The notes: generated by a model from the letters alone, not told the origin. DNA of 64,000 nucleotides from Phoronis australis (GCA_002633005.1 NMRA01000178.1:69395-133394); one strand, 5' to 3'. Counted from the stretch's first letter, positions 214 to 62,500 are shown. A program made the numbers and translations.

Positions 214-3200
214 GCCAGCTACACTCCAGAACATAACTACTACTGAAAATCTTCTCGACCAATTAGAGACACAAGCTGTTATTGGAGTCGGGAATTACGA
301 GAAGCTGGTCAAAATGCTGGAGGTGCACGGACTGCTTGATTTGAAGGCAAGGGTGGAACAGCAGGCAATTATTGTGGGTAATGAGGACCTTCGGTGAACC
401 TGCAGTGGTCACTAAAAGTCTCATTGGCACTCAACTGGCATACGGTTGACCAATGATTGTTTTCTGCAGGACAGTTTGATTGTCATCGAAATAAGTTTTT
501 ATTAAGAGTGTGGACTATTTCATATGATTTTCGCAAAACTTTGAAACTCGGATGCAATGTATCAAATTTTTGGAATAATGAGACCTACAAGTCTAAGTAA
601 TGATTGACTTTACTTTTTGTCAAGTAATTGTGTATTTATTCAGACTGCGTGACATTGATGTCATAACCCCTTTTGGTGGATTTATTTCAAAGCGTCTGTG
701 TAGCCAGGTCGTCGTTTCATAAAAAGTGAACAGATTATAATATTTGAAGTGACGATGTGTTCTAAATGAGTTTCTTTCAGCCATATGCCACAGGAGTATG
801 AGCTGACTAATCAACTTGAGCGCTCTACGCTGAGCGTTTTTATATTTTGGTACAGTCGCACTTTGAAACAAGTGACCACGTGGCTCAAAATGTTTAATTA
901 ACAATTTAAAAGTCACTGAGCGAGTACCGGTCGGTTTCGAACATAACATAAATATTCGTTTTAATAAAACGACAATGAGATTTTATGATTAATGTTCACA
1001 ATCCTTTCGTTCGCTCCACGCCTTGTTTTCGCTTATTACCAATACAAAAACTTACTCTCCTATCGACTTGTGCTTACATGTACATTGTGTATGACCAGGA
1101 ATTTCAGAAGCGATATTCAAAACTTTTTCTAAAGCAAATCGGTCTACACGTACATGCGCACCGTGCCTGTTTCAGACGACGCAAGTGTCATCACGTTTCG
1201 GAGGCGATTGCTTCAGAAATTGCCCCAGAATTTTCCTCGTGCAATGTGGTCACTTGTGATTCCCTTGATTGGCTGGCTTCTTTACAACACGTCAGGTGAG
1301 AACTTTAAAAATCTCTCGCATCAACCACTCGTTCACTGTCCACCGGTCACGCAATGGTTGACGGGTGGGTTTGTACTGACACTTTTTTACGTGTACATAT
1401 TTAGAACATGGAGACTCAAAAGTGAGAGAAGATGATAAGACAACTGCAGGTGAGTTGAATGAACAACAACAAATGACGTGCGTAGTAAGTTACTTGCAAT
1501 CTGATCTTCCTAAATGAGCTACAACACGTCGTGTGCATGCGTTGTCATCAAGCAACTGTTTTCTTAAATGTCATCACCAATCAGCCAAGCTAAAACTTCA
1601 AGTAGAACACCTAAGGATACGTTTGTTGCGCCACAGTCCTCACAGACACGAGATGAGAAAGAAATGCTGTAGAGCGCAGTGCACCTTTAAAATCGTTAAT
1701 TTAAATACACATCGATCGTTTTCACATTTCTTATGGTAGAGAGCAATTCTCATGGTAAAAAGCGTCTGATTATTTTGATACCATTATTACAATGACATAG
1801 GTCTAACAAGTACCAAAGAGGTTCAGCCAAATGATCAAATGTAAATATGAAAGGAACGGTATATAACCACTTGCCGTTATGAAACTGGTATGTAATTGTT
1901 CCTTTGTCAAATTGCTTAAGGAACATGCAGGAAGTGGTTCAGATCTCTAAAGTTCACTTCTTGGACTGAACGCTGGGTTTACGGTGGCCTCAAAGATTCA
2001 TATAGTCTCATTAAAGTGTAAATATACAAATAAAGTACTAAAATACAAACAACCCCGGGTGCCAAAGGAAGCATCCGAGAACCAGTTACTATTACAATCT
2101 CTTGAAAGTCTCGTTTTGCGAGACTATTTTTATGCAAATGAGTGTGGCAATATTTCATCGTTACCCAAATGAAACGAGACACAGTTTTTATTATTTCTTT
2201 ATTTCCCTATCAAATAACAATTGCGTTACATTTGAAATTGCTAGGTTTTTTATGTGTTCAAATTTTAAGTGTACCAGTTGCACAGTGGTATTTTCTTTAA
2301 AACCACAATTTATTTACACATTGGTTTTCCTGAAAAAACTTGTACACACAGTTCTCCAGGAAGTCACTAGGTGGCGTTTGCTATGAATTTAAATATCCTC
2401 GGTTTTAATTAGACATAGCATCCTTTAACGGAGATAGTTTTACACACTTTACAGGTACTGCTCTAAAAGCGCCAGATGGACAGCCGGTTGTTAGAGCCGA
2501 AAAACTCACTCATGCAACAATAACAATGAGGATACCGACTGGTCCAACGGAGACGGTAAACTAACCATTTCAACAGCTTAAAGAGGCCTGGAACGCAATA
2601 GACAGTCTAAATTGTAATATTGACAGTGGTTCTCTGCCATTGAATCGGGATTCAATCTGCTCACCAGGTATTTTTAGGGTTTGCTCGTAGAGATTTTAAA
2701 TTTTTGTTGACATCAAAGTATTTTTAGTTTCAAATTTCAAAAAAGAATCTGTCGAGTGCTCGCCATTTTTCTCCCACAAGGCAAAGCACGTCTCATTACT
2801 TTGGTACGGAAAGACACAGACATAATACATTTCCTTTATATGAAAAAAGAGACCTTTCACCTCAAGCGACTTCAAGCAACTGACTGGGAGAATTTATCAA
2901 TAGTGAGACACAGAAGCTCTGTGGTAACCATAGAGTTTTCATCTTCGCGTGCATTTCAAAAATTGTGATTTTGTGATTTTTTTTCTGGAAACTAGACCTT
3001 GCGAGGTGGTATTTTCATCATGAATTGTTGAAAAGATAATTTTGACGAGCTTTCGCGTTCCATGCCTCTTTTACACGTGTAGCCAGCAGATATCCTAAAG
3101 TCAAATGTATTGTTTAGCACTTCATTGATTGGCAGAAACACTCTGGCTAAGAGTTCTATTAGTTCACGACATGCACTCGTAAACAATTAGAGTGATAGGG

Positions 3201-4216
3201 AGCCAATACGGAATGGATAGTTCCAACTTGTCAATCTAGCTACCAGTTCTATCTAAGCAGGGCTCAGGAACATAGTAACGCAACGATTGTTATGTTCCTT
3301 CGCAGACCGAAGTATTTTGAACAATGCAAACGATAGTCCGCCATCTTTAGCCTACTAAGATTGGCTGCTAAGAAGGAAAGCGATACGCTTTGGACACTTG
3401 CTATGAAAATGAACGATATACAAAGCACGAAAAAGGAAAATGTAACACATAGCAGACTTGATGATCAGCTGAAAATACAATAGAGTTTCTTTAATAGTAT
3501 CTATTGTGAATTAATAATAAAACTTGAGGAAATGTGTTCAACACACGTGACTTACGAAAACGCTTTGGACATCACAAAACATGTTCATATTTCTAACCGT
3601 AAACCAGCAGTGGACACAACAAATTAAAACATTCAAATGCAATCAAACTACGGGTTAGTAGCTTTTTATCATCACGCTATGAAATTTAATTTTCGTGCAT
3701 CTAGTCTTGTCAACAAACATAAGAGTACGTACAATTACAAGTACCTGCGGTGAGCCCACTTGCTATAGAATGCAGAGGACATTTGTGAATGACAAGGTAA
3801 CTAAGGTGGGCGTGGCCTGACTGCATTTGTCGGAACTATCCACTACTCGTATTGATGGAAAACATCTTCAAACGTTCACTGAGTTGCTTTGCAATTGAGC
3901 AATCAGATATTTTTAACGCAATACTCAAATTAGTGTTCAAAGTGAAAAGCTATTAAATATATTGTTCCCATAGTTGGTCATCACACCGGCGCCAAACCAA
4001 GGTCAACCAATAATATGTGACGTTCTTGTCAGCTGGAGAATACAAAGATTTCAACTGGTCTTCGATGGTTTGGCAATATGTTCTGGTGTCACTGCCAAGG
4101 CGGAGGGATATCAAAGCAAAGGTGGAGCCGTGGAACATGCAATGAAAGAAATAACCCCTCTACTCCTTGGGTCAGGGGTCACAGTTCAGTACGGAGACAA
4201 GACTTGGACTACTTAA
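214..4216 (+). CDS. DED + anti-LPS-factor (ALF)-like domain protein, paralog 1 (first coding exon lies upstream of the window)
   Basis: Exons 214-377, 1405-1449, 2455-2555 and 3974-4216, all GT-AG and phase-compatible (entering in phase 2, then 1, 1, 0). The first visible exon encodes PATLQNITTTENLLDQLETQAVIGVGNYEKLVKMLEVHGLLDLKARVEQQA (C-terminal half of a DED). The last encodes CDVLVSWRIQRFQLVFDGLAIC-SGVTAKAEGYQSKGGAVEHAMKEI (ALF-like). Exon sizes 45, 101 and 243 nt match paralog 2. Confidence 0.85.
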
Positions 4217-4859
4217 GAACATGTTGTTGATAGTCAGTTTATCCTCTGTATGGGAAGTTAGGAAATGATGTCAAATGTGTGATCATTCTGTCCGATGTGG
4301 TCATTGTCCCCTCCTGTTCACAAGGGCGTGGGTTCAAACCCTACTGGACCCCGCTGGACCCCGCTGGACCCCGCTGCTAGACCCTGAAGTACGGCCTGTA
4401 GCTCCTCAGCTCGCTTTTAATATAATTTTATGTGTTATATCATGAAGACAGTAACTGTTACTTCCCTAGCGTCAGCAGACGACTTACAACTGTTGTTTTG
4501 CAGCTAGTTTTGTTTATGTCTGTTATTAATGATCGTTGCTTTCACTTGTAGTAAACTTATATAAGTAATTGTGTACGTGGAGCTACTAACTACTAAGATT
4601 CAGGTGATTTATCTGTAAAATTGCCGCATCGATTAGCTCTTTAAGTTGGTCAGCTGAAATAGGGGACATAACTCCAGTCAGTTATCTAGCTCAGTCGTGG
4701 AAAACCAAGTAAAATAAAGAACGAGAAGAGCCACGACAAAGTTATTGATTTGATAAAAATTTTTCCAACAAAAATCTCAAAACAGCCAATGGGATTCATG
4801 AGTTATAACGTGACACTGGTGACAGTAAACATCCTATATATGACGTTTATTTGAAAAAA

Positions 4860-5460
4860 TAATAACGATAATAAACTTATCAATTAAATAGATGCATAAA
4901 TACTAATGAATATACGAATAAATTAATGTATAAATAGATATATGTATAGTTAAACAAATAAAACTTCATAATTACAAACATAACTAGTTAACTGGATGAA
5001 TAAATACATATTAAACAAATACAGATCAGAAAAGGATAAGTAGAGTGTTGCACTACAGTCAAAGGATGGACTTAAAAATATAAAAAGATCTCTGATTCCT
5101 CACTTTCAAGTTTACGATATAAACATTTTTGCACGTGGTATTGAAGTTTGAGGAAGATTCTGTTTCTCGTAAGTTAGTTGGTAGGCTGTTCCATTTTTGA
5201 CTCTGGTGTAATACAGAAGCAGACCCTACGCAAGCGCATTAAGCAGATGAACCACTGCGGGTATAACAGCGATGAGATCCACGGATAGCAATAGAGCCAG
5301 GGTAGTGAGGGACACGCATTGTAAAAGATATTTGTATCAGACCTGATTCAGAAGGTCAACTCTGTTTTTGCCAGGCAGTAACTTTAGGAAACTCGTTCGT
5401 ACGAATAATAGATCTGTATGGCAGGTTAAGGAGAAAACGACAACGTTTTTGACATCTCTC
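4860..5460 (-). mobile_element. CR1/L2-type LINE 3' remnant (related copies at about 6032-6480 and 19400-19960)
   Basis: Minus-strand degenerate ORF2 C-terminus, clearest at 19735-19929 (KSRLIHNIFYNACPSYL...RSRSYNT), followed by an AT-rich TAAA-repeat tail. It sits downstream of both DED-ALF paralogs. Boundaries approximate. Confidence 0.55.
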
Positions 5461-6843
5461 AATAATTTGGTTTGGCACAGCAGGAAAAGGTTGGGCAAGG
5501 AAAACAGGTTGGGCCAAGAGTTCCTTTCGAATTAGACGTTCCTAATTTGAAAAATTCGTCGAATTTGAAAAATATTTTGTGTGGACTTTTTGTCGGTTCG
5601 TTTGTCACAATAATTGTGGGGTTTCTAAGTACAGTTATCCAATTTTCAGGTCACTTTCACTCCGTATAGTGGGATACTTGAGGCTGTGCGTAAAAACGCA
5701 CAACGCGTAATTGACACACAACTTCTGGGCCATTACCCGTCGGAGTGTTTTACTGTCGTGCTGCAGTGTTGGGCAAATTGGGGTTAAATATCTCTTTCCT
5801 CCTCCCCCCCCCCCTCTTCTCCCCATCCCTAACTGAGATCACAGCCTTCGCCCTTGGCTACGAGTTGAATCTGCAAATAAATCGATTTTGGGGACCGGCA
5901 CATCCCGCACATGTCTGCGAATAAGTAGTTATGTTAGCCTTGGCAGTGTTCGGTGCAAAATGACTTTGACTACAAGTGTGCACGTCGGACCGGTTCCTTC
6001 GTTTATTACCATGCGCAGCGAAACCCCATGNGTTGGTAGGCTGTTCCATTTTTGACTCTGGTGTAATACAGAAGCAGACCTGCCTCCCGTTCAGTAACGC
6101 TAGGACCTCGCTAAAAAGCAAGACTTCGCGAGATTACGTGATAAATTGCCGTGTATTTCAAATGAGAACACGTGACTTTGACTAGGTTTTAGCTAAGTCC
6201 TAGCGTAGGTTCTAGCGTCTACTGAACACACGCCTGGCCAAACCTTCTGCGCAAGCGCATTAAGCAGATGAACCACTGCGGGTGTAACGGCGATGAGATC
6301 CACGGAAAGCAATAGAGCCAGGGTAGTGAGGGACACGCATTGTAAAAGATATTTGTATCAGACCTGATTCAGAAGGTCATCTCTGTTTTTGCCAGGCAGT
6401 AACTTTAGAAAACTCGTTCGTACGAATAATAGATCTGTGTGGCAGGTTAAGGAGAAAACGACAACGTTTTTTGACATCTCTCAATAATTTGGTTTGGCAC
6501 AGCAGGAAAAGGTTGGGCAAGGAAAACAGGTTGGGCCAAGAGTTCCTTTCGAATTAGACGTTCCTAATTTGAAAAATTCATCGAATTTGGAAAATATTTC
6601 GTGTGGACGTTTTGTCGATCGTTTGTCACAATAATTGTGGGGTGTCTAAGTACAGTTATCCAATTTTCAGGTCTCTTTCACTCCATATAGTGGGATACTT
6701 GAGAGTGTGCGTAAAAATATAATAGGTTTTTAAAACCTATTTTACGTTAGCCTTGGCAGTTTTCGGTGCAAATTGAATTTGACTATAACTGTGCACGTCG
6801 GACCGGTTCCTTCGTTTATTACCATGCGCAGCGAAACTTCATG
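5177..6843. repeat. Local tandem duplication (5177-6030 / 6032-6843) joined at a single n; probable uncollapsed haplotypes
   Basis: The two copies are near-identical apart from copy-specific indels, and the junction is exactly the n at 6031. Confidence 0.75.
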
Positions 6844-7056
6844 TAGACGTAAATCTTTTAATCATGAAACGGGTCCTCAAATCACAAAATCCACTTCGCT
6901 ATAGCTACGGAAAATCGGGAATTCTTGACAAAATTCTCGATTTGGTAAGCGCCATTTCAGGCTACCTTGTTTTTAGCTCATGCACAGTCGTTGCCACATT
7001 AGATATTACGTGTCAGAAACTATACGCTGCGGGCACTGTATTGTGGGCACAACGCG

Positions 7057-7208
7057 CAGGGGACAAGGGGGGCATGATGGCCCCCCTAAAGTTCTCTCAG
7101 ATTCCATTTAGCAGATCGGGGGTGCGAATGGCTGAAGGGGAAAATCCTGGCTAATACTCTGCCCTGGTCGCCCCTCATTCAAAATCCTTGATTCTAAGTT
7201 CGCCCCTG
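7057..7208. mobile_element. Degenerate copy of the short CAGTGGCGGAT-type MITE (related to 32993-33141)
   Basis: Internal sequence ccccctaaa..ctc.cagattccat...gcgaat..ctga.ggg.aaaatcct.gctaatactctgc is shared with 32993-33141; ends are CAGGGG...CCCCTG. Confidence 0.6.
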
Positions 7209-10200
7209 CAGACACTGCACAATTCGGGAACAGCTCTGATATAGATAACAACTTCACAGTGACACACGTCAAACACCAACAATGAAAAGCTCGGAGGAAT
7301 AATTCCCTTTAAAACGTGGTGTTTGGTTGATTTTGGTTCTTTTGTCCAACTACAATACAACTGAGAGAGAACACAGTACACAGGCGGCTCGACTCACTTG
7401 CTTCATCACCAAGATGGCGAACCACTCGGCTCACCATACACCAAGTGACTATGCTTCTCTCTCGCAATACATCTATATTTTTCATGAGATTTTGCGAGTT
7501 CTTGCTTTTCTTGCAAGAAAGTAGGTCTACAGAGCTCACACCTGCCTGGCTTTTTGCCAGGTTGCATCAACATTGAATTGTCGTCTGGCTCCATTCACAA
7601 CAACGCATACCATTGTTTACATATCGCATGGGCATTGGCGTTTTTTCCTAAGCGAGATTCATTGATAAGGCAGTTTCCGACTGGTCTTTCACAACACACA
7701 CCTCTCAAGTAAAGCCCGTTTTTATCTAACTGCCGGAATTGGAAGCAAGGTAAGATGGCCCTCATAGCCATTGTTTCACCTAATTAGTTAATTAAACCCA
7801 GTAGTGGTTTGATGCCTTGGTGGTCATTTGTTTACTGGAAGAAATTGAAAATGAAAGCCACGAGCTCGACTTGCCTCGGTCTCTCGTTCCTGTGATTCGC
7901 TTTGAGAGCACGGATGTATGTGCCAAGGTATTTTACTGTTCGCTATGGTATCTTAGTTATCTATGTATACGAAATGCTGGAACACTTGTACGTGACGTCG
8001 TACTTGATGCTTATGTGACTTGAAACATTGAGCAACCTATAGTTAGTTATTCAAACGGAGATTCTTGAATGACCAAGCACATTTTGTATCCTTTTCACGA
8101 AAGACGTCGCTGTAGTCGTCTGGCGACTGATCTTTCACGTATGGCGCTTGTGCAAAAAACGGCTAAATCTCGTGAGATATTATCCAAATAAACCGCGGAA
8201 AAACGGTTCGCGATAGTTGTAATTTGAATGAGTTTCGAATCAGTTATGATTACCTTCTTAAAACTAGTAACTATAACCCTTGTAATTGAGAAAATCTGTA
8301 TTTATCTATCAAAATATAGACTTATCTCCCTTGTCATGCATACTTGGGGAATGCCCTATCGATGATCCCCGGGTAGAATCGTGACGCATGCGGATGATAC
8401 TAGGGTACTTATAGTATTAATTGGAGTAATTTTAAAACGGAAAACATTTAAACGGTTTAGTTGTCACTAAGTGAACATAAAACGTTCACTGTGCGATTAA
8501 AATGAAATAAAATTAGCAAAAGAAGCACATTTGACAGATCAACTGATTGCTCTATTGACGTTCCCACACTGAACTGCAATTGCTTAGCCATGTACTTCAT
8601 CGATCAAAGTTCGGGACCACAATGGCAGATTTGTCAATTTCAAAAGCGTTGGAACACTTGAAGATCAATTTCACTCTTAAAGATGAGCAAAAAGATTGTT
8701 GAGTTGATGACTTTACTACAAGGCCAGAACAGCAACATTTTTTCACAAGACGGCGGTGATGATGATACTGATGATGAAGAAAACAGTGGTGCCGCTTTTA
8801 GTACTTTCTAATTAGTGATATAATTAAAGGAAATTATTAAGTAGTGTATGCTCACACTAAGGCTCTGACGTCAACAAGTGACGGTGTGAAACGCTTGCAA
8901 AACAAGGAACAAGGTTCCAACGTGCCAATTGTGCAATTGTGTTAGAATGGTGAATTTAATGCTGAAAAATTAATTTCAATGATATCTATTCGCATCACAA
9001 CAGGTTTCGCAGCACCGAAATATTATAAATTTTCTAATACACTATTGACCCGGAATTTCCGAATCTGTGTCTGGAGGTTTTACGGAAATTTGGTAACCCT
9101 GCCAAAAATAATCAAAAACATACAACACGGATGCACTAAATAAAATCAAAATATTGCTCCCGAAAGACATGACAACCTGGAATTAACAGGGAACCCAGCA
9201 GCCCTTTTAGATCACCCTAAAGTACAAAAACCTGGGGCACACAGTTGAAAATTCAAATCAGATTTTCATGGATCGTTTTACTGTCAAAATTGCCCTTCAT
9301 TTTTTTTTGTTTTTAGAGAGTAACACTATCAGTGATAGTGTTTTCAAAGCAACAAATGTACAGAGAACGTCATGCAGGCATGTATTTTCAACCTTAACTA
9401 ATTGTAGGAGATCCAAAGTATTTATCATTTTAAATCTTTATATAAAAGTAATCCTGTGTTATACATTGACGCTAGTTGGTAAAAACGAGAGCAATAAAAT
9501 TCAAGTAGTACCTCTCCTTTAATGCAATATGTTTAAACATTGTGTGCGTGAAAGTATAACACACATAATATGCATATCTGGTCTAGCCTTTTTTAGTAGA
9601 GTATTACAGTTCAACAACTGAAATTAAATACCAATAACATGACCGATGTCAGACAGTGACCAGTTAGAGACGGTGGTCACTGTCTAGAGCGATGTGCGAT
9701 ACACAGAATTATCTGTGTTCAAGTGAATTGACTTACGGCCGTAAAATTTGAATCACTGATCAATTTTAGTACTGCAGATGGGAAATATGTTTTACTTAAT
9801 CGTACAAGCTTTTGCAGAAATTCTAAATTACAAAATAGGGCTCAAGTCGGATAAACGGTACCTGACATGGATAACCAGTTTCATCCACTGATAGCGACAG
9901 TAACCCAAGTAGCGACGGTGCAGCTCCTAAAGGAGGTTCATGCCCTGGAAGATTTTCGGCGAATTATGCCTCACACTGATAAAAACATAGGGTGACAATG
10001 CACTGGTTTTACAAAATAAATTGTCAACCAAAGTTATCAAATTTAGGAAATCTGTTAATAATTTAAAGTTTAACTGGCTTACTTTGATACTCGCTGTGGC
10101 GACTGCCAGGTCGTCAAATCGAGCACAGCCCGTACTTAAGTGACCAGCTCTACAGATCATGGCAGTTTAATTCGTGGGGCGCTGTTAATTGTTCCTGTTC

Positions 10201-10228
10201 TTGTCCTCTAGGCTCTGTGTAGCAGACT

Positions 10229-13200
10229 ATGAATGAGGACAAAGTGGAACTTCACTACCAAATCTTCGAACTGATAGAAGACGAAGTTGACACGGAAGAC
10301 TTTGAGAGACTAAAGGCCGCCAGTGGCCGTTGGATTAAGTAAGAAAACAAAAAACTTTGCCTGTGTGTTATAGAAACGTGAATAACTCTCTGTGGCCATT
10401 TTACCCGGTGATTCAATAACAAGCAGTGGCGGATCTAGGATATCACAAGGGGGGCGCCCAACATTTTGTCCGGCTGTAAGCATTAGCGCAAACTGAACCA
10501 CGATTGTAGATGCGCATAGCACCGAATGGGGGGAGGTCGGGAGGGGGTTTGCCCAAGAAATTTTTCTGTTTTTACCTCTAAAAATCAAGCATTTTCCTTG
10601 ATTCCTGAAGTATTATCCAAGAAAAAAAAAAGAAAAAAACACGGAGAACGTGTCAAACAGGAAAAACTCTAAGTATCAAAGACTCGAACTCACGAGCTGG
10701 AGGATAGGGCGCGCATACGTTACCACTACACCNNNNNNNNNNNNNNNNNNNNNNNNNNNNNNNNNNNNNNNNNNNNNNNNNNNNNNNNNNNNNNNNNNNN
10801 NNNNNNNNNNNNNNNNNNNNNNNNNNNNNNNNNNNNNNNNNNNNNNNNNNNNNNNNNNNNNNNNNNNNNNNNNNNNNNNNNNNNNNNNNNNNNNNNNNNN
10901 NNNNNNNNNNNNNNNNNNNNNNNNNNNNNNNNNNNNNNNNNNNNNNNNNNNNNNNNNNNNNNNNNNNNNNNNNNNNNNNNNNNNNNNNNNNNNNNNNNNN
11001 NNNNNNNNNNNNNNNNNNNNNNNNNNNNNNNNNNNNNNNNNNNNNNNNNNNNNNNNNNNNNNNNNNNNNNNNNNNNNNNNNNNNNNNNNNNNNNNNNNNN
11101 NNNNNNNNNNNNNNNNNNNNNNNNNNNNNNNNNNNNNNNNNNNNNNNNNNNNNNNNNNNNNNNNNNNNNNNNNNNNNNNNNNNNNNNNNNCCCCCCCCCC
11201 CCCCTAAATCCGCCTATGACACGTGATTAAAAACACTCGTTCTTCATAAAGGGACTAAATTTTTCAAGTTGAAATCGTTAGAGGTTCCCTTAATTCATTA
11301 CTTGAAATTTAATTCGTCACTCTCTAAGGCCCCTTAGCACATACAAAAGGTGTCAGTAGTAGGCAGGGGTCGTGGGAGCAGCTGGTGTCCTGCGACCCAC
11401 ATTCTGGACAGAAAGTTTCAGAAAATTTGGGCAGAATTTAAGCGCAGCATCCAATGGAAACACAAAGAAAAGACATTCAGAGAAGCTGTAATGACAGTCA
11501 AATACACAGAAATGAATAAACACGAGGCTAGGATTGGTAGCGACCGGGGGTAGGGGGCGGGGTCATCTACCGAAGTGTCGACCGGTTGGAATTGGGGTCA
11601 ATGAGGGAAGAAATAGTGGCGAGCACCGGCGAGTGATAATTACCTTCCTTATGTTCAGGCAAATTTATATCACACGCTGTCCCTAAAAAGTCAAGTCAAT
11701 GGCGTTGTTCCGTAGAGGATTCTAAGAGAAAAGCAAGACCCCGCAAAATCACACGAGCGAAAGGTGGGTGGTTCGCGAATATGTTCAAGACATTCCTAGT
11801 CTAACCTTAACCCAGCAAAATAACGGCCGTTGAAGTCATTGGTAGGTCAGGTTGGAATGTTGCATTATGGGATAGAATTCATAGATTATGGGATAGAATA
11901 GTTTCCGTTGCAAAGACATAAGGTCGTAAGCGCAAGCTCGTATTGCGTCTACTCATCCTAGTGATGCACACGTGGCTTCTATATTGCTAGTACATACGTG
12001 CGTTAAAGACGTTGGAATTCTCTGCCAATGAACATATTTTTAAAAATTGCTTTTCTAGGATTTCATCGTTTACTTTTGTGACTTTTTTTGGATCGCAGTA
12101 GGCTCTATGTCATGAACATCCACAAGTAGGCGCTGTTGTCTATCCACTCCTTCCACGGTCTCCGTCTGCAGTTCCAAGCTCTGTGCAGCCATCAAATTAG
12201 TTAGTTGCCGGTAGAAATTCAAACTTCAACGAATCAAGAAATTTCAATTACTTATTCGAAATCAGGGCTGTTTTTATTAAAATTCAAAAAATTCGGCTGC
12301 ACATCAATTTCGTGTTTTAAGATTTTCTATTGTGAGTGAATCGATCATTGTAGTAACTCTTAATTGTCATTAAAGATGGTTTTTTAAAGAGTCTTAAACA
12401 TAATAGATTGTGTTGGAAATTAAAGGAATTGTCGACAATCAGCCAATGTGCGTCTTGATTTAAAGGTCAGCAACGTTACAGAAAATAACCACCATCCGTG
12501 ATTTGCTTAGACAGTTTGACAAGCAAGCGATAATTGGATTGGGCAATTACGACAAGTTGATTAATCTACTGGACAAGCTCCGCCTGAATAAATTGAAAGA
12601 TGACGTGGAAAAAAAAGCGAGTGAAATAGCCCAGCTTACAGGTAACGTGCACTTTACAGTCGGACTCCAACTCCTTGAACTCGTGACTGCCTATAGATAA
12701 TTTGTAAGTGATGGATCTTCATTGTAGTTTCCTGAGGTTTACCAAATATTCTAATGTACATGTTAGTCGGTTAACAAACACGCATCCATTTCAATTAAAA
12801 TAAAGATGCCCTGAACTCCATCAATCGCATCAAATTAACCTGTCAAAGATAGAAGATGTCTCACAACATTTCTTGTGGTAGTTTTTGTTCTCCATCTTTT
12901 CAGAGATTATAATTATTTACCAATCAAATTTTGCTTTCATTTTTATTCATTTTAGTGCTATCTATTTCGACAACCTCGGTCACCCTTTCATCTGTGGATA
13001 CGAGCTTTTGACGCACACTTTTCATAGTTACGTTCTTTTCGAACAAAAATAATCTCTTTTGAGAAATATCTGAGTTTGTCCTTAAAAACATGATTCTTAT
13101 ACCATAATAAATGTTATTTTTTCTCCTCAAAGAAGGAATGTTACGATTATGATAACTAACAAAAATGTAAGAGTTACAGTAGTTTGATGTTTACAGAGTG

Positions 13201-15451
13201 AGGCCAGAAACAATGATCTGCAGATTGCAATCTGTAGCTGCGGTGTGTTTCGGACACAACCTGCACATATGACAAATTCAAATTTGTACATGCCAATAGA
13301 AATAAAAAGTTGACAGGTGAGATTATACTGACACTCTTTTGCGTTTACACCTTTAGAGCATGAAGACACAGAAGCGGGAGAAGTTGATGAGACAGTAGCG
13401 GGTGAGTGGAATGAACAGCAGAAAATCACGTGCGTGACGAAAATGAGCCACAACACATCACGTGCATGTGTTGTCCTCCAGCAACTGTTTTCCTGTCACC
13501 AATCAGTCAAGCTAAAACTTCAACTAGGATACTTAAGGATTTGTTTGATCCTCCCCAGCACTCATAACCACGAGATGAGGAAGAAAGGCTGTAGAGCCCA
13601 GTGCAATCGTTGATATCAATACACCCTTTTCACTTTTTTATGGTAGAGGACAACTTTCCTGGTAAAAGCGTCACTGCTCTAATACTTTTGATGTCGTTAT
13701 CACATCGACATAGGTCTATCAAATAACAAAGACAAGCAAAATGATCAAGGGCAAATCGATATTTCACAGTAGTTCGGTTGCAAAAAAGTGACCACTTACC
13801 GTTATGACATTGGTCTCGACTTGTTCCTTTGTCAAATTGAACATGATCTCAGGGCTTCGGAAGAACTAAAAGTTAATTATTGGTTGATAACTGACAATGT
13901 CATTTGAAGCGCCGAGCAAGGCCACGGTCACACATATAACGAACAGCAAACCCAGAAGCCACCTTGACTTCTCGCCTGAGTAATATAAGAAACAAATCAA
14001 GACCAATTTTATAGTGGTAAGTGGTTCAGATCAAAACTTCACTTCTCTGTTGAACGTGGGGTTTACAGTAGCCTTTACTGAGATAGTTTTACACACTTTA
14101 CAGGTGCTGTTCAATCAGAGCCACATGGGCAGCCGGTTGGTAAAACCGAAAAACTCACTCACGCAACTATAGCAATGACTCCACGGACTGGTCCAACGGA
14201 GAAGGTAAACTAACCATTTTAACGTTTTAACACGTAGTGTATTGCTTAACATTTTAGTCGTTGGCAGAAACGCTATAGCTAAGTTCTATCGTAAGTTCAC
14301 GACGCATAGCATGACAAAGTCCAGTGAATGGGCCACTTTACGGAATGGATAAGTTCTTACATGTTAATCAGGCTAGCAGTTCCATCTAATCAGGGTTCGA
14401 GAACAAGTTAACGCAACGATTGTTACGTTCCTTCCCAGACCGAAGTATCTTGAGTAATGCCAAACAATAGTCCGCCACCTTTAGCCTACTAACATTGGTT
14501 GCTGAGAAGGAACTTGCAATGGAGATCGACGATATGTGGGGAACGAACAAGAAATTAATGTAACATATAGCAGACTTGACGATCATCTGAAAATACAACT
14601 GAGTTTGTTTAATAGTATTTAATGTGAATTAATAACAAAACCTGGAGAAATGAGGACGAAAACACACGTGACTTACGGAAATGCCTCGTCGACATCCCAA
14701 GACATGTTTTCATTTCTAATGGTAAACCATCACTGGACGCAAAGAATGCAAATTAAATGCAATCAAATTACATGGGCGGTGCACCATGGGGCCTGGGGAG
14801 GTTGCGCCGCCCATAGTCTAAGGGCGATGCACCAGAGGAGGATTGGGGGGCTTTAGCCTCCCACTTTTTAGTGTTGCGCCTCCCATGAACTACTAGGAGG
14901 TATCCTTTGAATCATCATATGAGCTATGAAATTATTCCCGTACATCTAGTCGTGTCCATGAACAAAGGCAAAACAACTACATGTACCTGTGGTATGGCAC
15001 AGCTGTTCAGCGGCATCTGTGAATGACACAGTAACTAAGGTGGGCGTGGCCTGACTGTATTTGTCGAAGCTATCCACTATTTGCATCGATGGTAATATCT
15101 CCAACAACTCACCCAGTTGCTTTGCAAGTAAATTCATTAGAGATTTTTAACGCAATTACTCGAATAACTGTTCAGAGTGAAACGTTATCAAATATCTTGT
15201 TCCCATAGTTGGTCATCACACCGGCGCCAAACCAAGGTCACCCAATGGAATGTGACGTTAAAGTCAGCTGGAGAATAGAAAGCTTTCGAAAGGTCTTCGA
15301 TTGTTTGGCAATATGTTCTGGTGCCACTGCCAAGGTGCCGGGATGTCAAAGTGAAGCTGAAGCCGTGGAACACGCCATGAAAAAAATAACACCTTTACTC
15401 CTTGGGTCAGGGGTTAACGTTCAGTACGGAGACAAAACGTGGACGACTTAA
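10229..15451 (+). CDS. DED + ALF-like domain protein, paralog 2 (complete, 224 aa, no signal peptide)
   Basis: Coding exons 10229-10338, 12466-12641, 13357-13401, 14104-14204 and 15209-15451 (675 nt, GT-AG, open frame). N-terminus MNEDKVELHYQIFELIEDEVDTEDFERLKAASGRWIKSATLQKITTIRDLLRQFDKQAIIGLGNYDKLINLLDKLRLNKLKDDVEK fits the DED helix pattern. An acidic linker follows, then CDVKVSWRIESFRKVFDCLAIC...AVEHAMKKI. An acceptor at 10211 implies an upstream non-coding exon. Confidence 0.88.
10424..11218. mobile_element. About 790-bp non-autonomous DNA transposon in intron 1 of DED-ALF paralog 2 (spans the N gap)
   Basis: Ends CAGTGGCGGATCTAGG / CCTAAATCCGCCTATG, flanks ACAAG/ACACG (imperfect 5-bp TSD). 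Inverted homolog of 35847-36628. Confidence 0.75.
10733..11190. other. Assembly gap (N run)
   Basis: 458 consecutive n. Confidence 1.
14771..14887. mobile_element. Small CATGGG...CCCATG MITE present only in the last intron of paralog 2
   Basis: Absent at the homologous site of paralog 1 (caatcaaactacg, about 3640). Flanks AATTA/AACTA. Confidence 0.65.
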
Positions 15452-16863
15452 GAACACCTAGTTGACAGTATTAGTCTCTGCATAAGAAGTTTGTATATTT
15501 TCAAGATGATCATATTGTCCAAAGTGTTGATTGTCTGCCTCCTGTTTACAAGGTCTTGGGTTCAAACCCCACTGGACCCCACTGCTAGACCCTTGAATCA
15601 TGTCTCTAGCCGTCCTCAGCTCGCTTTTAATATATATGTTGTATCATGAAGACAGTATGTCAGGTGTTTCGTACAATGAGGGGTCTGCGTATGTCTGATG
15701 CAATGTCCATCAGATAACCTGTGCTATTTTTTAACATTTTTTATTTCATAGAAAACAAAATAGAAATTAACATAAAAGAAAAAAATTAACTGCTTAACTT
15801 TTTGTGGTATTCAAAGTCCCGAAAAAAAAGTTTTTACTTACACGGGCGAAGGAAAATTAGCAAACCTTAAGTCGTTAAACCTAATCTGTTTTCATTACTT
15901 TAATTAGAGGTTGTTTTCCAGTAACTTGACGAAAAGGTCACGTCTTGCCAGGATGCATTTGTTTACGCAGGTGTAACAGAGAAACTAATTCGGTGACTCC
16001 CATATTTTTGAAAATGCGTAGGTTCTAAGGACGAAAACACAAACACTGATTTTTTGTAAAATATACGTTAAATGAAAGCTGTGCGAACAACCTTAATTAC
16101 AATCACAAATAAGAACAATAAAAATTACGTCCTTTATTGACCAATTCGGACCCGGCCATACAGTTTCGTCTGCTTGTGTGGAAAAGTCTCGTGCATCTGA
16201 TCTCGGCCAGGGAACTAGGAGCTGGCTACTCTTTTCTCCTGTAGTGTACTAGGACCAAAGCCGCGCGGAAGCAGGTCCTCGACTCGTATTTTTTCCCACG
16301 AACGATCTGGTTTGGTCATATAGAGATCCCAGTCGAACCCAAACTGAAGAGAACATTAATAGTACATGTATAAACACATATTATTTAAACAATGTTATAT
16401 ATGAAATGAAGTCTAGCAAATACATGTAAATTCCACTAATGATACAAATATATGTAACTTCATTAAGTAACGTTTCGGTGAAATCCTCAATCATTTTCAG
16501 AAAATTGCTGACCACATTCCGGGCTATCCTATTCAAAATACATAGGGTATAATAAAACATAAACCTGTGTTTGCTTATACAGGCCAAATGGGACAGTTGC
16601 ATAACTAAGAACAAGGTTCACAAAGAACTACTTTCACTGACCCTGTACGTCAATTTCAAAATACCCATTGTGTGTGAACGACACGGATGATTTAAAGCAC
16701 TTTGCAAAATTCTAAGCCACTATCGGACTAGTTGCCTACCCCCTCCAAGTCCACAATGAGTATTTTTATCCTTTATGGTTGACTGGCCTGGATTTTTTTA
16801 TAAAATTTACAGTCGAATGGTCCAGAAAAACTTTGCAATTAAAAGCAAATTAGAAAACGAAAA

Positions 16864-26175: not shown

Positions 26176-33690
<7,515 letters not shown>

Positions 33691-49319: not shown

Positions 49320-49760
49320 ACAAGTCATTTGCTAATCTCTGACCGTTTAGGTTGCACTCGGTAGGCTCCAGCCACACAATCACTCACAGGTGAGGAAGTA
49401 TGCCACTGCATATCTGACTAATTAGGCTGCAATTGGTAAGCTCCAACCACTCACTCACAATTACTCGCATGTGAGGAAGTATGCAACTGCATATCTGTCT
49501 ATTTAGGCTGCATTTGGTGGGTTCCAGCCACTCGTACACAATCATTTTCAGGTGAGGAAGTATGCAACTGCACATCTGTCTATTTAGGCTGCATTTGGTG
49601 GGCTCCAGCCTCTCGTACACAATCATTTTCAGGTGAGGAAGTATGCAACTGCTCATCTGACTATTTAGGGTGCAGCTGGTAGGTTCTTTCTGCTCAGACA
49701 TTATAACCCACAGGTGAGGTAGTGTGCAACTGCATATCTGACCATTTAGGATGAATTTCC
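49320..49760. repeat. 81-bp minisatellite, about 5 copies
   Basis: caggtgaggaagtatgcaactgc...tttagg recurs at about 49387, 49468, 49549, 49630 and 49711. Confidence 0.85.
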
Positions 49761-50638: not shown

Positions 50639-51596
50639 CAGGCTTCTTATTTAATGGGTAAATAATGTTTTCTGTCTGTTAAAAAAACAATTTTTGGTCT
50701 TTGCCACATAACATTAAAAAATCATTCTCATCTTGTTCCTTACTCGAACCAGAAAATGATTTCCACATTTGAGACTAATTGCTTGAGAGACCACAGCACT
50801 TGTCACGACCGACCGGTTGGTTGATCCGTTTATCTGTCGGGACTTCAAGCAGTTGTAGCCAGTCTCTTCTATTCTGGCTGACTAGTGAATGAACTTAAAG
50901 ATGTATCTGCATGCTCTTAACTATGCTAATTTAGCAGGAACTATACAACAATGATATTTTGAATGTAATGTACGCTAAACAAAGTACAGTTGTGTTCACT
51001 GACAACTTGTGTGAAAACAAATTGGTAACCTTTGCACTAATGACGTACCTCGCAACTTCATATTGCCCACATCATACTGTGTTATTCCCCAGCACCACGT
51101 CGTGATACTAACTGGACACGGTTCAGTGATTTTCGGTGGATCATTTTTGCCTCAAAACTCGCTCTTAAAAACATAAATTTGGCAAATTTCAATCCACTTC
51201 ATGCTCAAATCGTCACTATAGTTGTGTTTCTAACTAATTTGGCTTAGCAATCTCAAAGATAAGGAATTAGCCTGCAAGTGAAATTACCTGCTCCTTATAA
51301 GTAGGTCTCTTGGTTTAGTGATTTACAAGTGCCATTTTTAAATGGGATAATGAACAGCTATCTTGTAGACAATGGATTTCAGTGGTGTGATTTTTGAAGA
51401 AAATGCAATCTTGCACAGGTTGCATTTCTCCTGTGTTTTAATCATGTGTGTATTTTACTAAAAAATCATAATTTCATTGCAGAAGCATGTCACGTTGGTA
51501 ACGAGCCTGTGATGTTCAACCAATAGGAGTTGATAGTATAAACGAGTGTTGCTCTATCATGTTTTATATTCTATTTCAGATTCAGTGCTATTCAGA

Positions 51597-53825
51597 ATGC
51601 TGCGACAACTGCTGACAACATTGTACAACTGCCTGCTGTTCCTACGCCAGTTCATTCTGTGGAACCTGCGCAGTGTTGGCAACCCTCGTGCATTCGTATT
51701 CGAGTACCTCCTGAACGTTCACCGGCCTAGTGATGACACAGTGGAAAACATACACTCCATATTTGACCTATTTCGCCTCTACTCCACCCAGTCAAACTTG
51801 AAACGTGACACTAAGGGCAGTGCTGACGACAACACTGACTCAGGTACAACAAAAATTTCAGCACGTGTCTTCAACCAGAAAGTTGTGAGTATCCTCTCGC
51901 GTTGTCCTGATGATGAAAACGTCCTTCAGGTTGTCGATGAAGACGGCTACAATCTACTCCAGAAGGCCATCATTGCCAATAATCTCCACCTTATACATGC
52001 CCTGGTCAAGAAGGGTTGTGATGTAAATGTCTGTCAATGCAGCCCACCCCTTCACTTGGCTTGCAAACTTGGTAATGCCAGTGTGGTGAAACTCCTGCTG
52101 AAACATAAGGCACGCATTGATCTGGAGGCCGGCATGTGCTATCCTAAGCCACACGCTTGCATGAATCAGGCACACTCAAAATTCTTCTTCATAGACAAGA
52201 ATGTCTATGACTGTGAACGAAACAAGAAAAGGCCTGTGCTGTATGCCATTGATCATGACAATGTCGATCTGGTTCAAATGCTCAGTGAATTTGACACCAA
52301 TGTACTGACCAATCAGAAACATTTGTTGCACTATGCCTGCAGCCAAGGGTCCTTTGAGTGTGTTGAGTATTTATACAGTCAGCGACCAGAGGATATAAAT
52401 CGCCTTGACGATGCCGGATACACGCCTTTACTGCATGCAGTACAATGGGGTTATGTGTTCAGTAAGACTGTGCTCACTAAAGGGGCGTCCATATCCTGTT
52501 GCACCCCTAATCGGGAAACGCCTCTCCACATTTTGTTTCTCAAGAGTAAAGCACCTGATAGCTGGTTTGAAACAGCTAAGTTACTACTTGGCTCTGGCCT
52601 AGAGGATGCTATCAATGCACAGGATAACCATGGCAACACAGCACTGCATAATTTGGTTGGCGTGGTGAAGCATCACATGAGTAATGAAGAGTACAAGTTA
52701 GAAGAGTGGGACCGTGTGCATCGAGGGCAGACATTGTTGTGTGTTGACTTACTGCTACGTTACAATTCTGACCCCACTCTGTGCAATAAAGAAGGTTTGA
52801 CTCCCATTCACGTCTTGCTCACTTTGTTTTACGAGAAATTCCATGTGACCACTGAAGCCGATGGGCATTATCTGAGACTAGCCTTTGATCTCCTGCACGA
52901 CATTTTGAAAGTGTTCCTGGATAACGACATGGATCCCAACATTGCATCCCCTGGTGGTCGTACGCCCTTAATGATCTTACTTCCACAGGTTCTTCATATT
53001 GATTACTCCACTGAGCGATGCTGTTGCCAGACTAAAATCTCCTGCTTGAAACTGTTGTGTCACCATGGTGCTGACCCCAATTTTGTGATGGCCACTGAAA
53101 ACAGTTGTGTGTCGCTAATGTCACAGTTTGCCACGCAGGTGATCCGTATACGTTACAATACGTCCCTAGAGGTGCTTCGGCAAATCAAACAAGCCAATGC
53201 TGATCACCTGACCAACATTCTTGTGCTTTTGCTGAGGAATGGCCTCAACCCAAACTTTACATCTAATCGACGTCGACCTCAAATGGAGCCAGGCAGTGGA
53301 AATGGTCTGGTTGAGTTTGTGAAACTCGCTCAGAACGTTACTGAACCCAAAGACTTTGCACTGATTCACAACTGGATTTTGACCATACTTCAGTGGGGCG
53401 GTAACCCAGACATTGAACCTTTCCCCTCTGAATCAATCATCTGTCAGTCACAGAGTTCCATATTCTTAAAACACAACTGCACCCAAGCTGTCAATCATTT
53501 CATGTTAGAGATCCAAGACTTCAGTTCATGGTTGGACGGTGACCACGCTGAACAACTTTTAATGTTGTTCGTTAATTCAATGGATCATCTTGCGTTGTAT
53601 CAGTGCCTTGGTTCGTCAAAATTCATGTCGAGGTTTAATCCGAACCGTAAACCAAGCAGGAAGTTCAGTCAAATGATCCATCAGCTCAACTCAAATCCTC
53701 GCTGCTTGAAACAGATCTCAAGAGTAGCTATATTGAAGGCCATGGACAGGAAAATTATTGGAAAGGTGGACAAGTTACCGCTTCCTAGACTGCTGAGGGA
53801 TTACATATCGGACTTATCTTCTTAA
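51597..53825 (+). CDS. Ankyrin repeat and SOCS box protein (ASB-like), 742 aa, single coding exon
   Basis: Long ORF with many ankyrin motifs (GYNLLQKA, SPPLHLAC, GYTPLLHA, ETPLHIL, GNTALHNL, GLTPIHVL, GRTPLMIL) and a C-terminal SOCS box (PRCLKQISRVAILKAM...VDKLPLPRLLRDYI). Acceptor at 51579; first in-frame ATG at 51597. Confidence 0.92.
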   Translation: MLRQLLTTLYNCLLFLRQFILWNLRSVGNPRAFVFEYLLNVHRPSDDTVENIHSIFDLFRLYSTQSNLKRDTKGSADDNTDSGTTKISARVFNQKVVSILSRCPDDENVLQVVDEDGYNLLQKAIIANNLHLIHALVKKGCDVNVCQCSPPLHLACKLGNASVVKLLLKHKARIDLEAGMCYPKPHACMNQAHSKFFFIDKNVYDCERNKKRPVLYAIDHDNVDLVQMLSEFDTNVLTNQKHLLHYACSQGSFECVEYLYSQRPEDINRLDDAGYTPLLHAVQWGYVFSKTVLTKGASISCCTPNRETPLHILFLKSKAPDSWFETAKLLLGSGLEDAINAQDNHGNTALHNLVGVVKHHMSNEEYKLEEWDRVHRGQTLLCVDLLLRYNSDPTLCNKEGLTPIHVLLTLFYEKFHVTTEADGHYLRLAFDLLHDILKVFLDNDMDPNIASPGGRTPLMILLPQVLHIDYSTERCCCQTKISCLKLLCHHGADPNFVMATENSCVSLMSQFATQVIRIRYNTSLEVLRQIKQANADHLTNILVLLLRNGLNPNFTSNRRRPQMEPGSGNGLVEFVKLAQNVTEPKDFALIHNWILTILQWGGNPDIEPFPSESIICQSQSSIFLKHNCTQAVNHFMLEIQDFSSWLDGDHAEQLLMLFVNSMDHLALYQCLGSSKFMSRFNPNRKPSRKFSQMIHQLNSNPRCLKQISRVAILKAMDRKIIGKVDKLPLPRLLRDYISDLSS

Positions 53826-59532: not shown

Positions 59533-62500
59533 CTAATCCTTGTCCTGATTTCCAGAGTTAGATAGATTTAGAACGATGTTTTTGGCCCAGCTGAGGTCAG
59601 CCTTGAGGAGTAGGCCATATGTTACTGCACAGTCATGAACACATGCATTGGTATCATTGAAACAGTGGTTCAACAACCGGCCTAGACTGTCTTGACACTC
59701 TGCTGGTCGCTTGAAGAACAATTTCAATGTGCATGTTAACAAGCACAGCTTCACACAACATTCCACCTCCTCATCAATGCTGTCTATACTTGATTCAATA
59801 ATGTACGGACTGTCGTCAATGTATTCCCCGTATTCTCCAATTAACCAATAGAGGGCACTTCTACCAGAGGCATCGGATAGATTTTCAACTGATCTTGGTA
59901 ATGCACTTAAAGCATCCCTTAAATTCTCCAATTTCCTCAAGTCAATATTTTGCAACGATCTCAACACAGCACAAGTTGTGTGAGCCTGGTTTAATTCCAG
60001 TAACGTCAATAATTTCGCTGCACATTTAGTGAACGCCGTGTGAATATTGTGTGCAACTGTTGACAATGCTTGAACACCAGCCTGCACTATCTGTGATGAT
60101 GTATCAGTGCAATACATTCCTAACTCATCAATCACTTCATCTGCGTTACTTTCACATACAAGCTGGGACAACAACTTAATTTTAGGAATTTTCACATAAC
60201 TTGGTTCATTATATTTACAGAAAAAAGATGAATATCTGGCTGCAAAAATGTCAGTGAACTGGACCACCAAGTCTTTTATTGTGTCCAACACAATACAGCA
60301 CAGCTCAGGGTTACTACTGTTGAGGATACTTGTCAGTGATTGGCTGGCTCGTTTGACCACTTCTGACGTCAGCTGTGCATTATCACTAACAAGATGCATG
60401 AAGAGCTGAAAACAGCCAATCACAACTGCACTGTTGTTGTGCTTTAACAATGGATCACAGATGTCCATTATACCATACACATCATCAACCGATTTGGGTT
60501 TGTATTTCTGAAGCATTTTCAAAATAGTAGGCAAGGACCACTCATTGAACTCTGACATTCTGTTGACCAAATGATTCGCAATGTGTTCATTAACCACCAT
60601 TCCACCCTCATGTTCAAGAATCTCCTCCAGTGCTGACACACAGTTGACCACAACAATAGGGTCTTCATCCCTTATAAGGGCGTACAGGGTGTCCAGAAAC
60701 CCATGATCTTCCATAGTGTGGGGGTTGGCATGATGGAGCTTCACACAACCCAACACTGCGGCTCTGCGTACATATGGGCTGCGATCTTCAAGAGCTCTTT
60801 CCACAGGGCTAACAGCATACTCAGTGAGTTGAGAGTGCCTTAACGCACACAATGTCTTCACAGCCAAACCTCTGATAAGCGGATTGGAGTCCACGCAGTC
60901 TTTTAACAGGGTGTTGATTGCTAGGATAACTAAGTCCTTCTCTGCCTCAGCATGTTGTGTCACACAATGACACGCCAGTTTCTTCACAACAATGTCTGGA
61001 TGAGCTAGAATTTTAACAACATTGGAGAAAATTGGTTGGATGTCAATTTTCCTCGTCATCATACCAACAACCTGAAAATAGAAAAACGAAAATATGTTAA
61101 AAATGGTTGAATTTAAATTGTATTGCAGGGCCCTTGTTCATCCGAAGGGAAATGTGCCTGTGCCTTCTGAGAGAGTAATTTTTTGGGGTGAGGTGGAAAT
61201 CCTACCTCACGATAACCATCAATAGCAACCCCCCCACCCTGTTCAAGCCCTCATAGGCTCAGCCAAAACTAACATTTTGCACTACTTCAAATTGTGATTC
61301 TAACCTCGAGGGGAATTTTTCAATCACTTGAAGGGAATTTTGGGGCCTCATAATGGAAACATCACATGATTTTCAATAAGTTTCAGAGGGGTATGGGACA
61401 TATATTCAGCCCCAAAAATGAGGGATTGAGGGCCCTGTATTGTATCATGGGTATAAATTTCTTAGCACAGAAAGACCACATAGGGCACACTCAGAAATGT
61501 TCATTTACTAAAGTATTTTTTTAGTTCAAGAAGAGCCCCTTGGGAGTTCATAAAAAAGATGCGAAAATGTATGTTTGAACACATCACCCTTGAAATGAAT
61601 AGTGGACTTTCAATTACGAAAAGGGATATTTCATTAAGAACATTAAGTTAAGCATAGATACATGATCTGAAGTGTTTTTTAGCAGTTTGGATAATTTTAA
61701 TCAGTGAAAATTCGCCAACTAACATTTTGGGCTTGGAAGGGGTAACTGGTAGGCACAGAGATTTAGAAGTTTGAGGATGGTTTGTAGTAAATCATCAATG
61801 TCATTCATACACAATAGGCCGCTTGATATTGTCATGCAACATCAGCGAGTGAAAGAAGTTCTTTGTGAACCCTCCTCTAAGTCACACAACTGTCCCAACT
61901 GGCCAGAGTAAGTAACACAGTGTGGCAAATAGTTTATGGTCCTGGCTGAGAAGATATTGCTTCATTATACCTTATGGTTTTTAATAGCCAACTTCCACAT
62001 ATCATAGTGTCATGATAAGTGGCTGACAAAGATGCCTGTGAACAAGCTAAGGCTGAATCTGTCTACAACTCAAAGTCAAAACTGTCGAAGGACAGAAATC
62101 TGTAGCCTGCTTGACTGGACAGAGCCAGCAAAAGACAAAACGTTTCAAGAAATGCTATTTGGAGTCATATAGTCAGAACACAAAAGACAGTTGAGTTGTA
62201 GTCTCTTCGAGAAAGAGATCCCCGAATAGAACGAGTCCCATACCATAGCCTAAAGCAATGTGCCACAAGGCAAGTGAGAGGAGTGTAGTAATTGCCGAAA
62301 TCACCAATTCACACACAGGAATCGAACAAGCGACCACAATAAAACGAGCAAGGATGCTTAGGGTTAGTTTACCCATAAGCACCTGGCTATGGCATAGCTT
62401 ATGCCTATGGCTATGCCTATGCCATGCCCTAACATGGGCCATGGCTTACCAACTGAACTTGACTGTACAGTGTCAACAATCAACAACTGCAAAGTGGCTT

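Follow-up and report, generated by a model that had tools for sequence, protein, structure and literature searches.

The 64,000-nt stretch of Phoronis australis DNA analysed here (GCA_002633005.1, NMRA01000178.1:69395-133394; hereafter the window, with positions counted from its first letter) carries two tandem genes on its plus strand, each of which is predicted to join a death effector domain (DED) to a small C-terminal domain that is likely related to the anti-lipopolysaccharide factors (ALFs). According to self-BLAST, a module at 1357-4453 is duplicated at 13309-15657. Gene 2 can be read as one 224-residue frame across five exons with GT/AG ends. Its predicted first coding exon (10229-10338) opens with ATG and an acidic DED start, ends in phase 2 and is in frame with the next exon, although alone it has no Pfam match; an assembly gap (10733-11190) lies inside the intron that follows. 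The DED exon (12466-12641), a 45-nt linker exon (13357-13401; AG/GT, open frame, no RNA reads), a 101-nt linker exon (14104-14204) and the terminal exon (15209-15451; assigned by homology to gene 1, with an exact 147-nt match in an X8 contig) complete the model. Gene 1 repeats this layout with counterparts of the last four exons of gene 2, namely a DED exon (214-377), linker exons of 45 nt (1405-1449, phase 1-1) and 101 nt (2455-2555, phase 1-0), and a terminal exon (3974-4216), its first exon probably lying to the left of the window. Both gene 1 linkers are open frames bounded by AG/GT and paralogous to those of gene 2; the splice of the 45-nt one is unseen in the reads. No further copies of the gene 1 terminal exon were found within the window.

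When scanned singly, the second exons of the gene layout cover positions 32-79 of the Pfam DED profile (PF01335) under its curated cut-off of 35.9 bits, with E-values of 0.0039 for gene 1, where the exon encodes the C-terminal part of the domain, and 0.00048 for gene 2. The DED exons of the two genes share 51% protein identity and 60% DNA identity (98/163), versus 81% for the introns of the module. Since the DED exons are far older by this measure than the module, it is likely that copying or conversion carried the linker-plus-ALF module from one older DED gene to another, as far as sequence identity can tell. In the RNA reads, which amount to about 18-19% of each of three runs, the last splice of gene 2 (14204 to 15209, GT..AG) was seen in three reads of one run. 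That the DED exon is spliced to the module we infer for both genes, because the exon phases fit and the layout recurs. No signal peptide was found in the gene 2 model: the protein opens with the acidic DED, its best 15-residue hydropathy near the start is 0.15, and there is no hydrophobic leader.

The terminal exon of gene 1 matches the ALF/scygonadin family (PF11630) at 16.5 bits (E 0.0098; curated cut-off 25 bits), and that of gene 2 alone has no PF11630 match. A HMMER scan of 1.84 billion proteins gave six matches, three of which are repeat proteins with a GAVEHA helix that themselves score above the PF11630 cut-off. Inspection showed that P0001, P0003 (ankyrin) and P0006 owe their scores to chance similarity summed over repeats, and these three were set aside. 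A profile made of both exons and one repeat from each of three repeat proteins was compared with the PDB and matched only shrimp ALF (2job, E 0.009). The terminal domain is likely homologous to ALF, by transitive links only. An earlier note on this DNA had associated the domain with microbial recognition, and this association is upheld insofar as the PF11630 and 2job matches make the domain a likely relative of a family that binds microbial patterns. A deeper profile recovered 14 repeat proteins, and none of the 7,997 proteins scored was a DED fusion. Word-based protein searches with the terminal exon confirmed none of 75 longer and 3 similar-length candidates, the ESM Atlas returned nothing at 0.9 or above, none of 78 candidate metagenome contigs was confirmed, and a single-sequence search of the PDB gave ankyrin chance rows only. 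The repeat proteins P0002, P0004, P0005 and P0007-P0017 are unnamed JGI sequences with 3-5 Cys-free ALF-like repeats, several of them with an N-terminal membrane anchor, and probably come from microbial eukaryotes.

In both paralogs Cys15 and Cys36 close a 22-residue hairpin (4016-4081 in gene 1), after which come a strand and a helix; the Cys spacing and this order match the ALF/scygonadin family (PF11630; ALFPm3, 2job). The structural model predicts strands at residues 13-24, 27-36 and 39-46 and a helix at 49-66 (pLDDT 70, ends under 50), and its strands bring Cys15 and Cys36 face to face, the arrangement found in ALF, with a putative disulfide between the two. A model made from the two sequences was set aside (pLDDT 44), and MAFFT with all 16 rows misregistered the first strand. 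ALFs have three helices on a four-stranded sheet, in contrast to the three strands and one helix modelled here, where the last helix of ALF corresponds to a low-confidence tail. Foldseek ranked a double-stranded RNA-binding domain (dsRBD) first and 2job second, none with E<=0.001. Among the 50 VIA rows listed, 2job has the lowest root-mean-square deviation (rmsd; 1.7 over 62 residues); its alignment to the model extends over 58-62 residues at an rmsd of 1.7-1.9 and is tied with or behind the dsRBDs. These results raise the alternative that the terminal domain is a unit resembling the dsRNA-binding motif, and that the protein senses nucleic acid and not a cell-wall ligand. The fold lists are indeed full of dsRBDs (HYL1, RNase III, DRB4), and two oyster studies describe DSRM domains in caspase prodomains (PMC7836458, PMC12122919). 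However, identity in the fold rows is only 3-20%, no dsRBD/dsrm Pfam match was found in the terminal exons at E<=1, and the first helix of the alpha-beta-beta-beta-alpha dsRBD fold is absent from the model, which excludes the upstream exon. The RNA contacts of dsRBDs involve a GPxH loop and a KKxAK motif; the site of the latter reads S48-K-G-G-A in gene 1, which keeps one Lys, and S48-E-A-E-A in gene 2, which keeps none. The fold cannot separate ALF from dsRBD, but ALF is favoured by the Cys-x20-Cys spacing and by every link in sequence, and a nucleic-acid sensor seems quite improbable to us.

All divergence figures concern one pair of paralogs, gene 1 and gene 2, and thus two sequences. The terminal exons align without gaps over 80 codons plus stop; 27/80 codons differ (18 replacement, 9 silent) and 62/80 residues are identical. 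The earlier note had described diversifying selection confined to a putative ligand-binding region, and the counts behind it are exact: 16 replacement codons and 1 silent codon in codons 1-51, compared with 2 and 8 in codons 52-80. The changes it named are all present (L18K, L28K, Q24E, R25S, Q27R, K49E and G51E), as is the gain of two Cys by gene 2 (G32C, Y46C). At this cut (codon 51/52), the replacement/silent contrast has a Fisher P of 1.7e-4; because the breakpoint was picked post hoc, a permutation over all cuts was run (20,000 label permutations, best of all cuts taken), and the corrected P is 7.5e-4. A simulation with a uniform dN/dS ratio (omega) of 0.6 produced the observed contrast in 1/3,000 runs. 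The heterogeneity along the exon is real, beyond chance under a uniform model. Codons 1-10 show zero differences, and a 44-nt tract across the acceptor site (3962-4005) is identical to 15197-15240. A run this long occurred in 1.1% of 20,000 shuffles, and it would represent either a short conversion tract or splice/protein constraint. Past this tract, total nucleotide divergence is flat, at 5-7 per 40 nt. Of the 16 replacements in codons 1-51, 7 lie downstream of the Cys15-Cys36 hairpin and 3 upstream.

As a neutral yardstick we took four non-coding blocks (intron or untranslated region) that can be aligned between the two copies of the module. They diverge at 265/1,395 sites (0.19), a value that is low if anything, since the blocks were taken from BLAST hits. 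Tested for an excess over the non-coding value, replacement divergence (pN) gives P 0.7 in codons 1-51 (0.17-0.18) and P 0.3-0.4 in codons 11-51 (0.21-0.22); in the Cys-Cys loop it amounts to 0.16-0.17. It is 0.04 in codons 52-80, a deficit relative to neutrality (P<0.001), and the C-terminal helix is clearly under purifying constraint. The tail varies too, since one DNA contig at gene 1 carries the replacement variants T70R and Q72H. Silent divergence (pS) in codons 52-80 is high compared with the non-coding blocks (0.38-0.40, P 0.03-0.06); for exons 3-5 taken together the value, 0.16-0.17, is compatible with them (P 0.30). In linker exons 3-4 there are 22 replacement versus 4 silent codons (n=48), with a pN of 0.23-0.29, and codons 11-51 do not differ from these exons in replacement divergence (P 0.73). 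Because the upstream linker exons show the same replacement rate, the signal is not confined to the domain as the earlier note had it. Its claim of diversifying selection is not supported as it stands: dN does exceed the local dS in codons 1-51 (dN/dS 4-5, one-sided P 0.01-0.09, uncorrected), but pN there is not above the non-coding level, and the ratio is high because silent changes are scarce, beside a constrained C-terminal helix. Two relaxed models with an omega of 1 before codon 52 and without positive selection (3,000 runs) gave some window with at least 16 replacement codons and at most 1 silent codon in 14% and 22% of runs. Sheet residues change at the intron rate, and silent changes are patchily spread. 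Positive selection on codons 1-51 is possible, and we put the shortage of silent changes there down to chance, helped either by constraint on the splice site or by conversion over a short tract.

The distribution of the replacements on the model gives no sign of the recognition surface that had been proposed. With strand faces taken from the predicted strand registers and not from coordinates, replacements occupy 6/15 strand positions on the open, exposed face and 5/15 on the helix-facing one, so that no enrichment of the exposed face is predicted. The lipopolysaccharide (LPS)-binding residues of ALF are given as K/R31, K35, K/R46, K/R48 and K/R58 in PMC3701609. When the alignment is anchored on the Cys residues, the first four of these correspond to D16, S20, D31 and L33, unchanged between the paralogs and non-basic, and the fifth falls near A41-A43, with K42 adjoining. 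The net charge of the hairpin is 0 and +1 in the two paralogs, versus +6 in 2job. Classical lipid A binding is unlikely in either copy, because the LPS-binding positions are non-basic and the hairpin charge is about 0; group D ALFs are likewise described as devoid of basic LPS-binding residues (PMC3701609). As for the two new Cys, whose adjacency the earlier note had suggested checking, Cys32 is predicted to sit opposite residue 43, facing the helix, and Cys46 opposite residue 29, on the open side; they would lie on opposite faces of the sheet, not adjacent, and a Cys32-Cys46 disulfide was rejected on this predicted register. In the same model, G32C and A43V may be compensatory.

Expression differs strongly between the two ends of gene 1. 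The DED exon has 15-47 RNA reads at positions 250 and 351, versus 0-2 at codon 70 of the terminal exon, where mean depth is 0-1.1. Sense-strand reads run past the DED donor to about position 1000 (depth 1.4-6.7 in bin 528-1054, three runs), through an intron (378 to approximately 1000) which, with a stop at 395-397 and AATAAA at 963, is likely also the 3' end of a DED-only transcript. This transcript, from gene 1 or a near copy, seems dominant. RNA over the gene 2 DED exon is sparse and limited to one run. Region 214-430 is covered by two full-depth DNA contigs and shows mixed RNA alleles (250 T>A in 58-78% of reads), which suggests that the gene 1 DED exon exists in a second, almost identical copy. 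A third paralog, better expressed, appears in all four RNA runs at 80% likeness (9-22 reads). It maps only downstream of codon 58, and an 885-nt contig of it has 12 differences over 15384-15457. On inspection by eye, G50, G51 and E59 are common to this paralog and gene 1, which makes G50A, G51E and E59K derived in gene 2, while about 7 silent and 4 replacement codons separate the two within codons 50-80 (11/12 differences visible). The ALF module could alternatively be seen as a rarely spliced, decaying appendage, with DED-only proteins doing the work and the third paralog keeping the function. The read counts of gene 1 and of the third paralog are in agreement with this, as are the near-neutral pN and the gain by gene 2 of E44P at a strand and of its two Cys. 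Against decay, both genes have kept their frames and splice sites through about 0.2 substitutions per site, purifying selection still acts on the helix and the last intron is spliced in RNA, and we regard it as unlikely.

The reading we favour, and to which we give somewhat better than even credence, is that the tandem paralogs encode proteins with an N-terminal DED and a C-terminal ALF-derived domain that would reside in the cytosol, and that the divergence pattern comes from constraint on the helix next to near-neutral drift in the sheet and linker. Several observations weigh against it. On the side of architecture, the RNA subset has no reads that link a DED exon with the module, all domain matches in the window fall below curated cut-offs, the model was built on a nine-row alignment hand-picked for the ALF register, and dsRBDs reach VIA Z scores of up to 7.3, against 5.8 for 2job (the level for a common arrangement being Z 8, above both). 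On the side of drift, pS in codons 1-51 is 0.04, low compared with the non-coding blocks (P 0.003-0.03), 0/16 fourfold sites differ there (P 0.034), the relaxed models reproduce the full observed contrast in only 1.0% and 3.7% of runs, and exons 3, 4 and codons 1-51 pooled have a dN/dS of 2.2-2.5 (one-sided P 0.013-0.034, region chosen post hoc). This pooled ratio, like that of 4-5 inside codons 1-51, would be explained if exon-level conversion had reset the silent clock at the 5' end and selection had afterwards brought about 20 replacements to fixation in codons 11-51, with further ones in the linker, so that the paralogs would gain different partners or ligands. Such a course, which amounts to the idea of the earlier note minus its confinement, is also in line with the 44-nt identical tract over the acceptor (P 0.011, shuffling), with the better fit when local dS is freed (P 0.002-0.013, 1 degree of freedom, uncorrected), with the derived state of G50A, G51E and E59K in gene 2, and with the 5' part being the most variable across three copies, as deduced from the third paralog mapping only from codon 59. 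But the tract spans codons 1-10 only, total nucleotide divergence is flat along the exon, the exposed face is not enriched, and T70R and Q72H fall within the supposedly conserved part. Two sequences and a window picked post hoc moreover make this a case of the artefactual dS swings in sliding windows described by Schmid and Yang (PMC2581807). Conversion followed by selection is a fair alternative, though in our view the less likely one. Under the favoured reading of constraint beside drift, the lesson is that a two-sequence window can imply an omega of 4-5 while replacements run at the intron rate.

Elsewhere in the window, an intron-free frame of 762 codons (51537-53822, plus strand) encodes ankyrin repeats and a C-terminal SOCS box and is ASB-like, and an intron-free beta-adaptin frame of 534 codons lies at 59536-61137 (minus strand; Adaptin_N E 1.6e-75). 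We take the latter to be AP-4-like, its single long exon presumably being unusual for the family. Introns, the DED and the gene with ankyrin repeats and SOCS box mark the host as an animal. A frame with a PCGACRQ motif (28739-29008, minus strand), which alone has no Pfam match, resembles what we assume to be a cytidine deaminase exon. The segments 5177-5696/6032-6717 and 23341-24765/25328-26721 are tandem, 94-100% alike and separated by single Ns, and are likely assembly haplotype duplicates. At 49335-49758 a unit of about 75-80 nt is repeated in tandem, and the minus strand there has an open frame.

The DED-ALF architecture is, in our view, more interesting than the selection signal. FADD, c-FLIP short and PEA-15 are known regulators of the FADD/DED-only kind. 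Like them, the proteins described here would have a single N-terminal DED and be small and non-enzymatic, and a DED-only product is likely here too, whereas FADD carries a C-terminal death domain in the place of the ALF-like one. Drawing on established DED biology, we propose that within the cell the ALF-like domain would bind a partner protein or a ligand of microbial origin, that the DED would relay the signal to a DED-bearing caspase or a FADD-type adaptor, and that the DED-only transcript could act as a decoy or brake on signalling. Unlike ALF, the gene 2 model has neither a signal peptide nor a hydrophobic N-terminal helix, and the domain is placed behind a DED. In invertebrate 'direct connector' immune genes such as amphioxus DED-NACHT, domain shuffling has likewise put a death fold next to a putative sensor, and the products are similarly predicted to act on caspases with no adaptor in between (PMC2575513); here the sensor is instead one small ALF-like domain, and NACHT, LRR and TIR are absent. 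The oyster DSRM-prodomain caspases (CgCas1-2D, PMC12122919; Cg3C-like, PMC7836458) also combine a three-strand-plus-helix domain with cell-death signalling, and the oyster DSRM pair is reported to bind microbial patterns. These are, however, proteases with true DSRM matches, and the DED-ALF protein has neither a catalytic domain nor a DSRM match. No DED-ALF protein was found in the literature, in a search that most subscription journals and supplementary domain tables lay outside.

A tentative extension, which we would put forward as a speculation only, is that these genes belong to a family of cytosolic receptors with an ALF sensor and a DED, whose paralogs diversify sheet and linker under selection after module swaps and which produce DED-only decoys. 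ALFs are described in PMC3701609 only as secreted peptides of chelicerates and crustaceans; the ALF-repeat proteins, given their probable origin, would extend the family past arthropods. If the DED-ALF reading is true, the ALF fold would also be, beyond its role as a secreted arthropod peptide, an intracellular trigger of invertebrate cell death. For the question of how invertebrates without vertebrate-type inflammasomes detect microbes inside the cell, the DED-ALF protein, with two domains, 224 residues and at least three paralogs, is a directly testable candidate.

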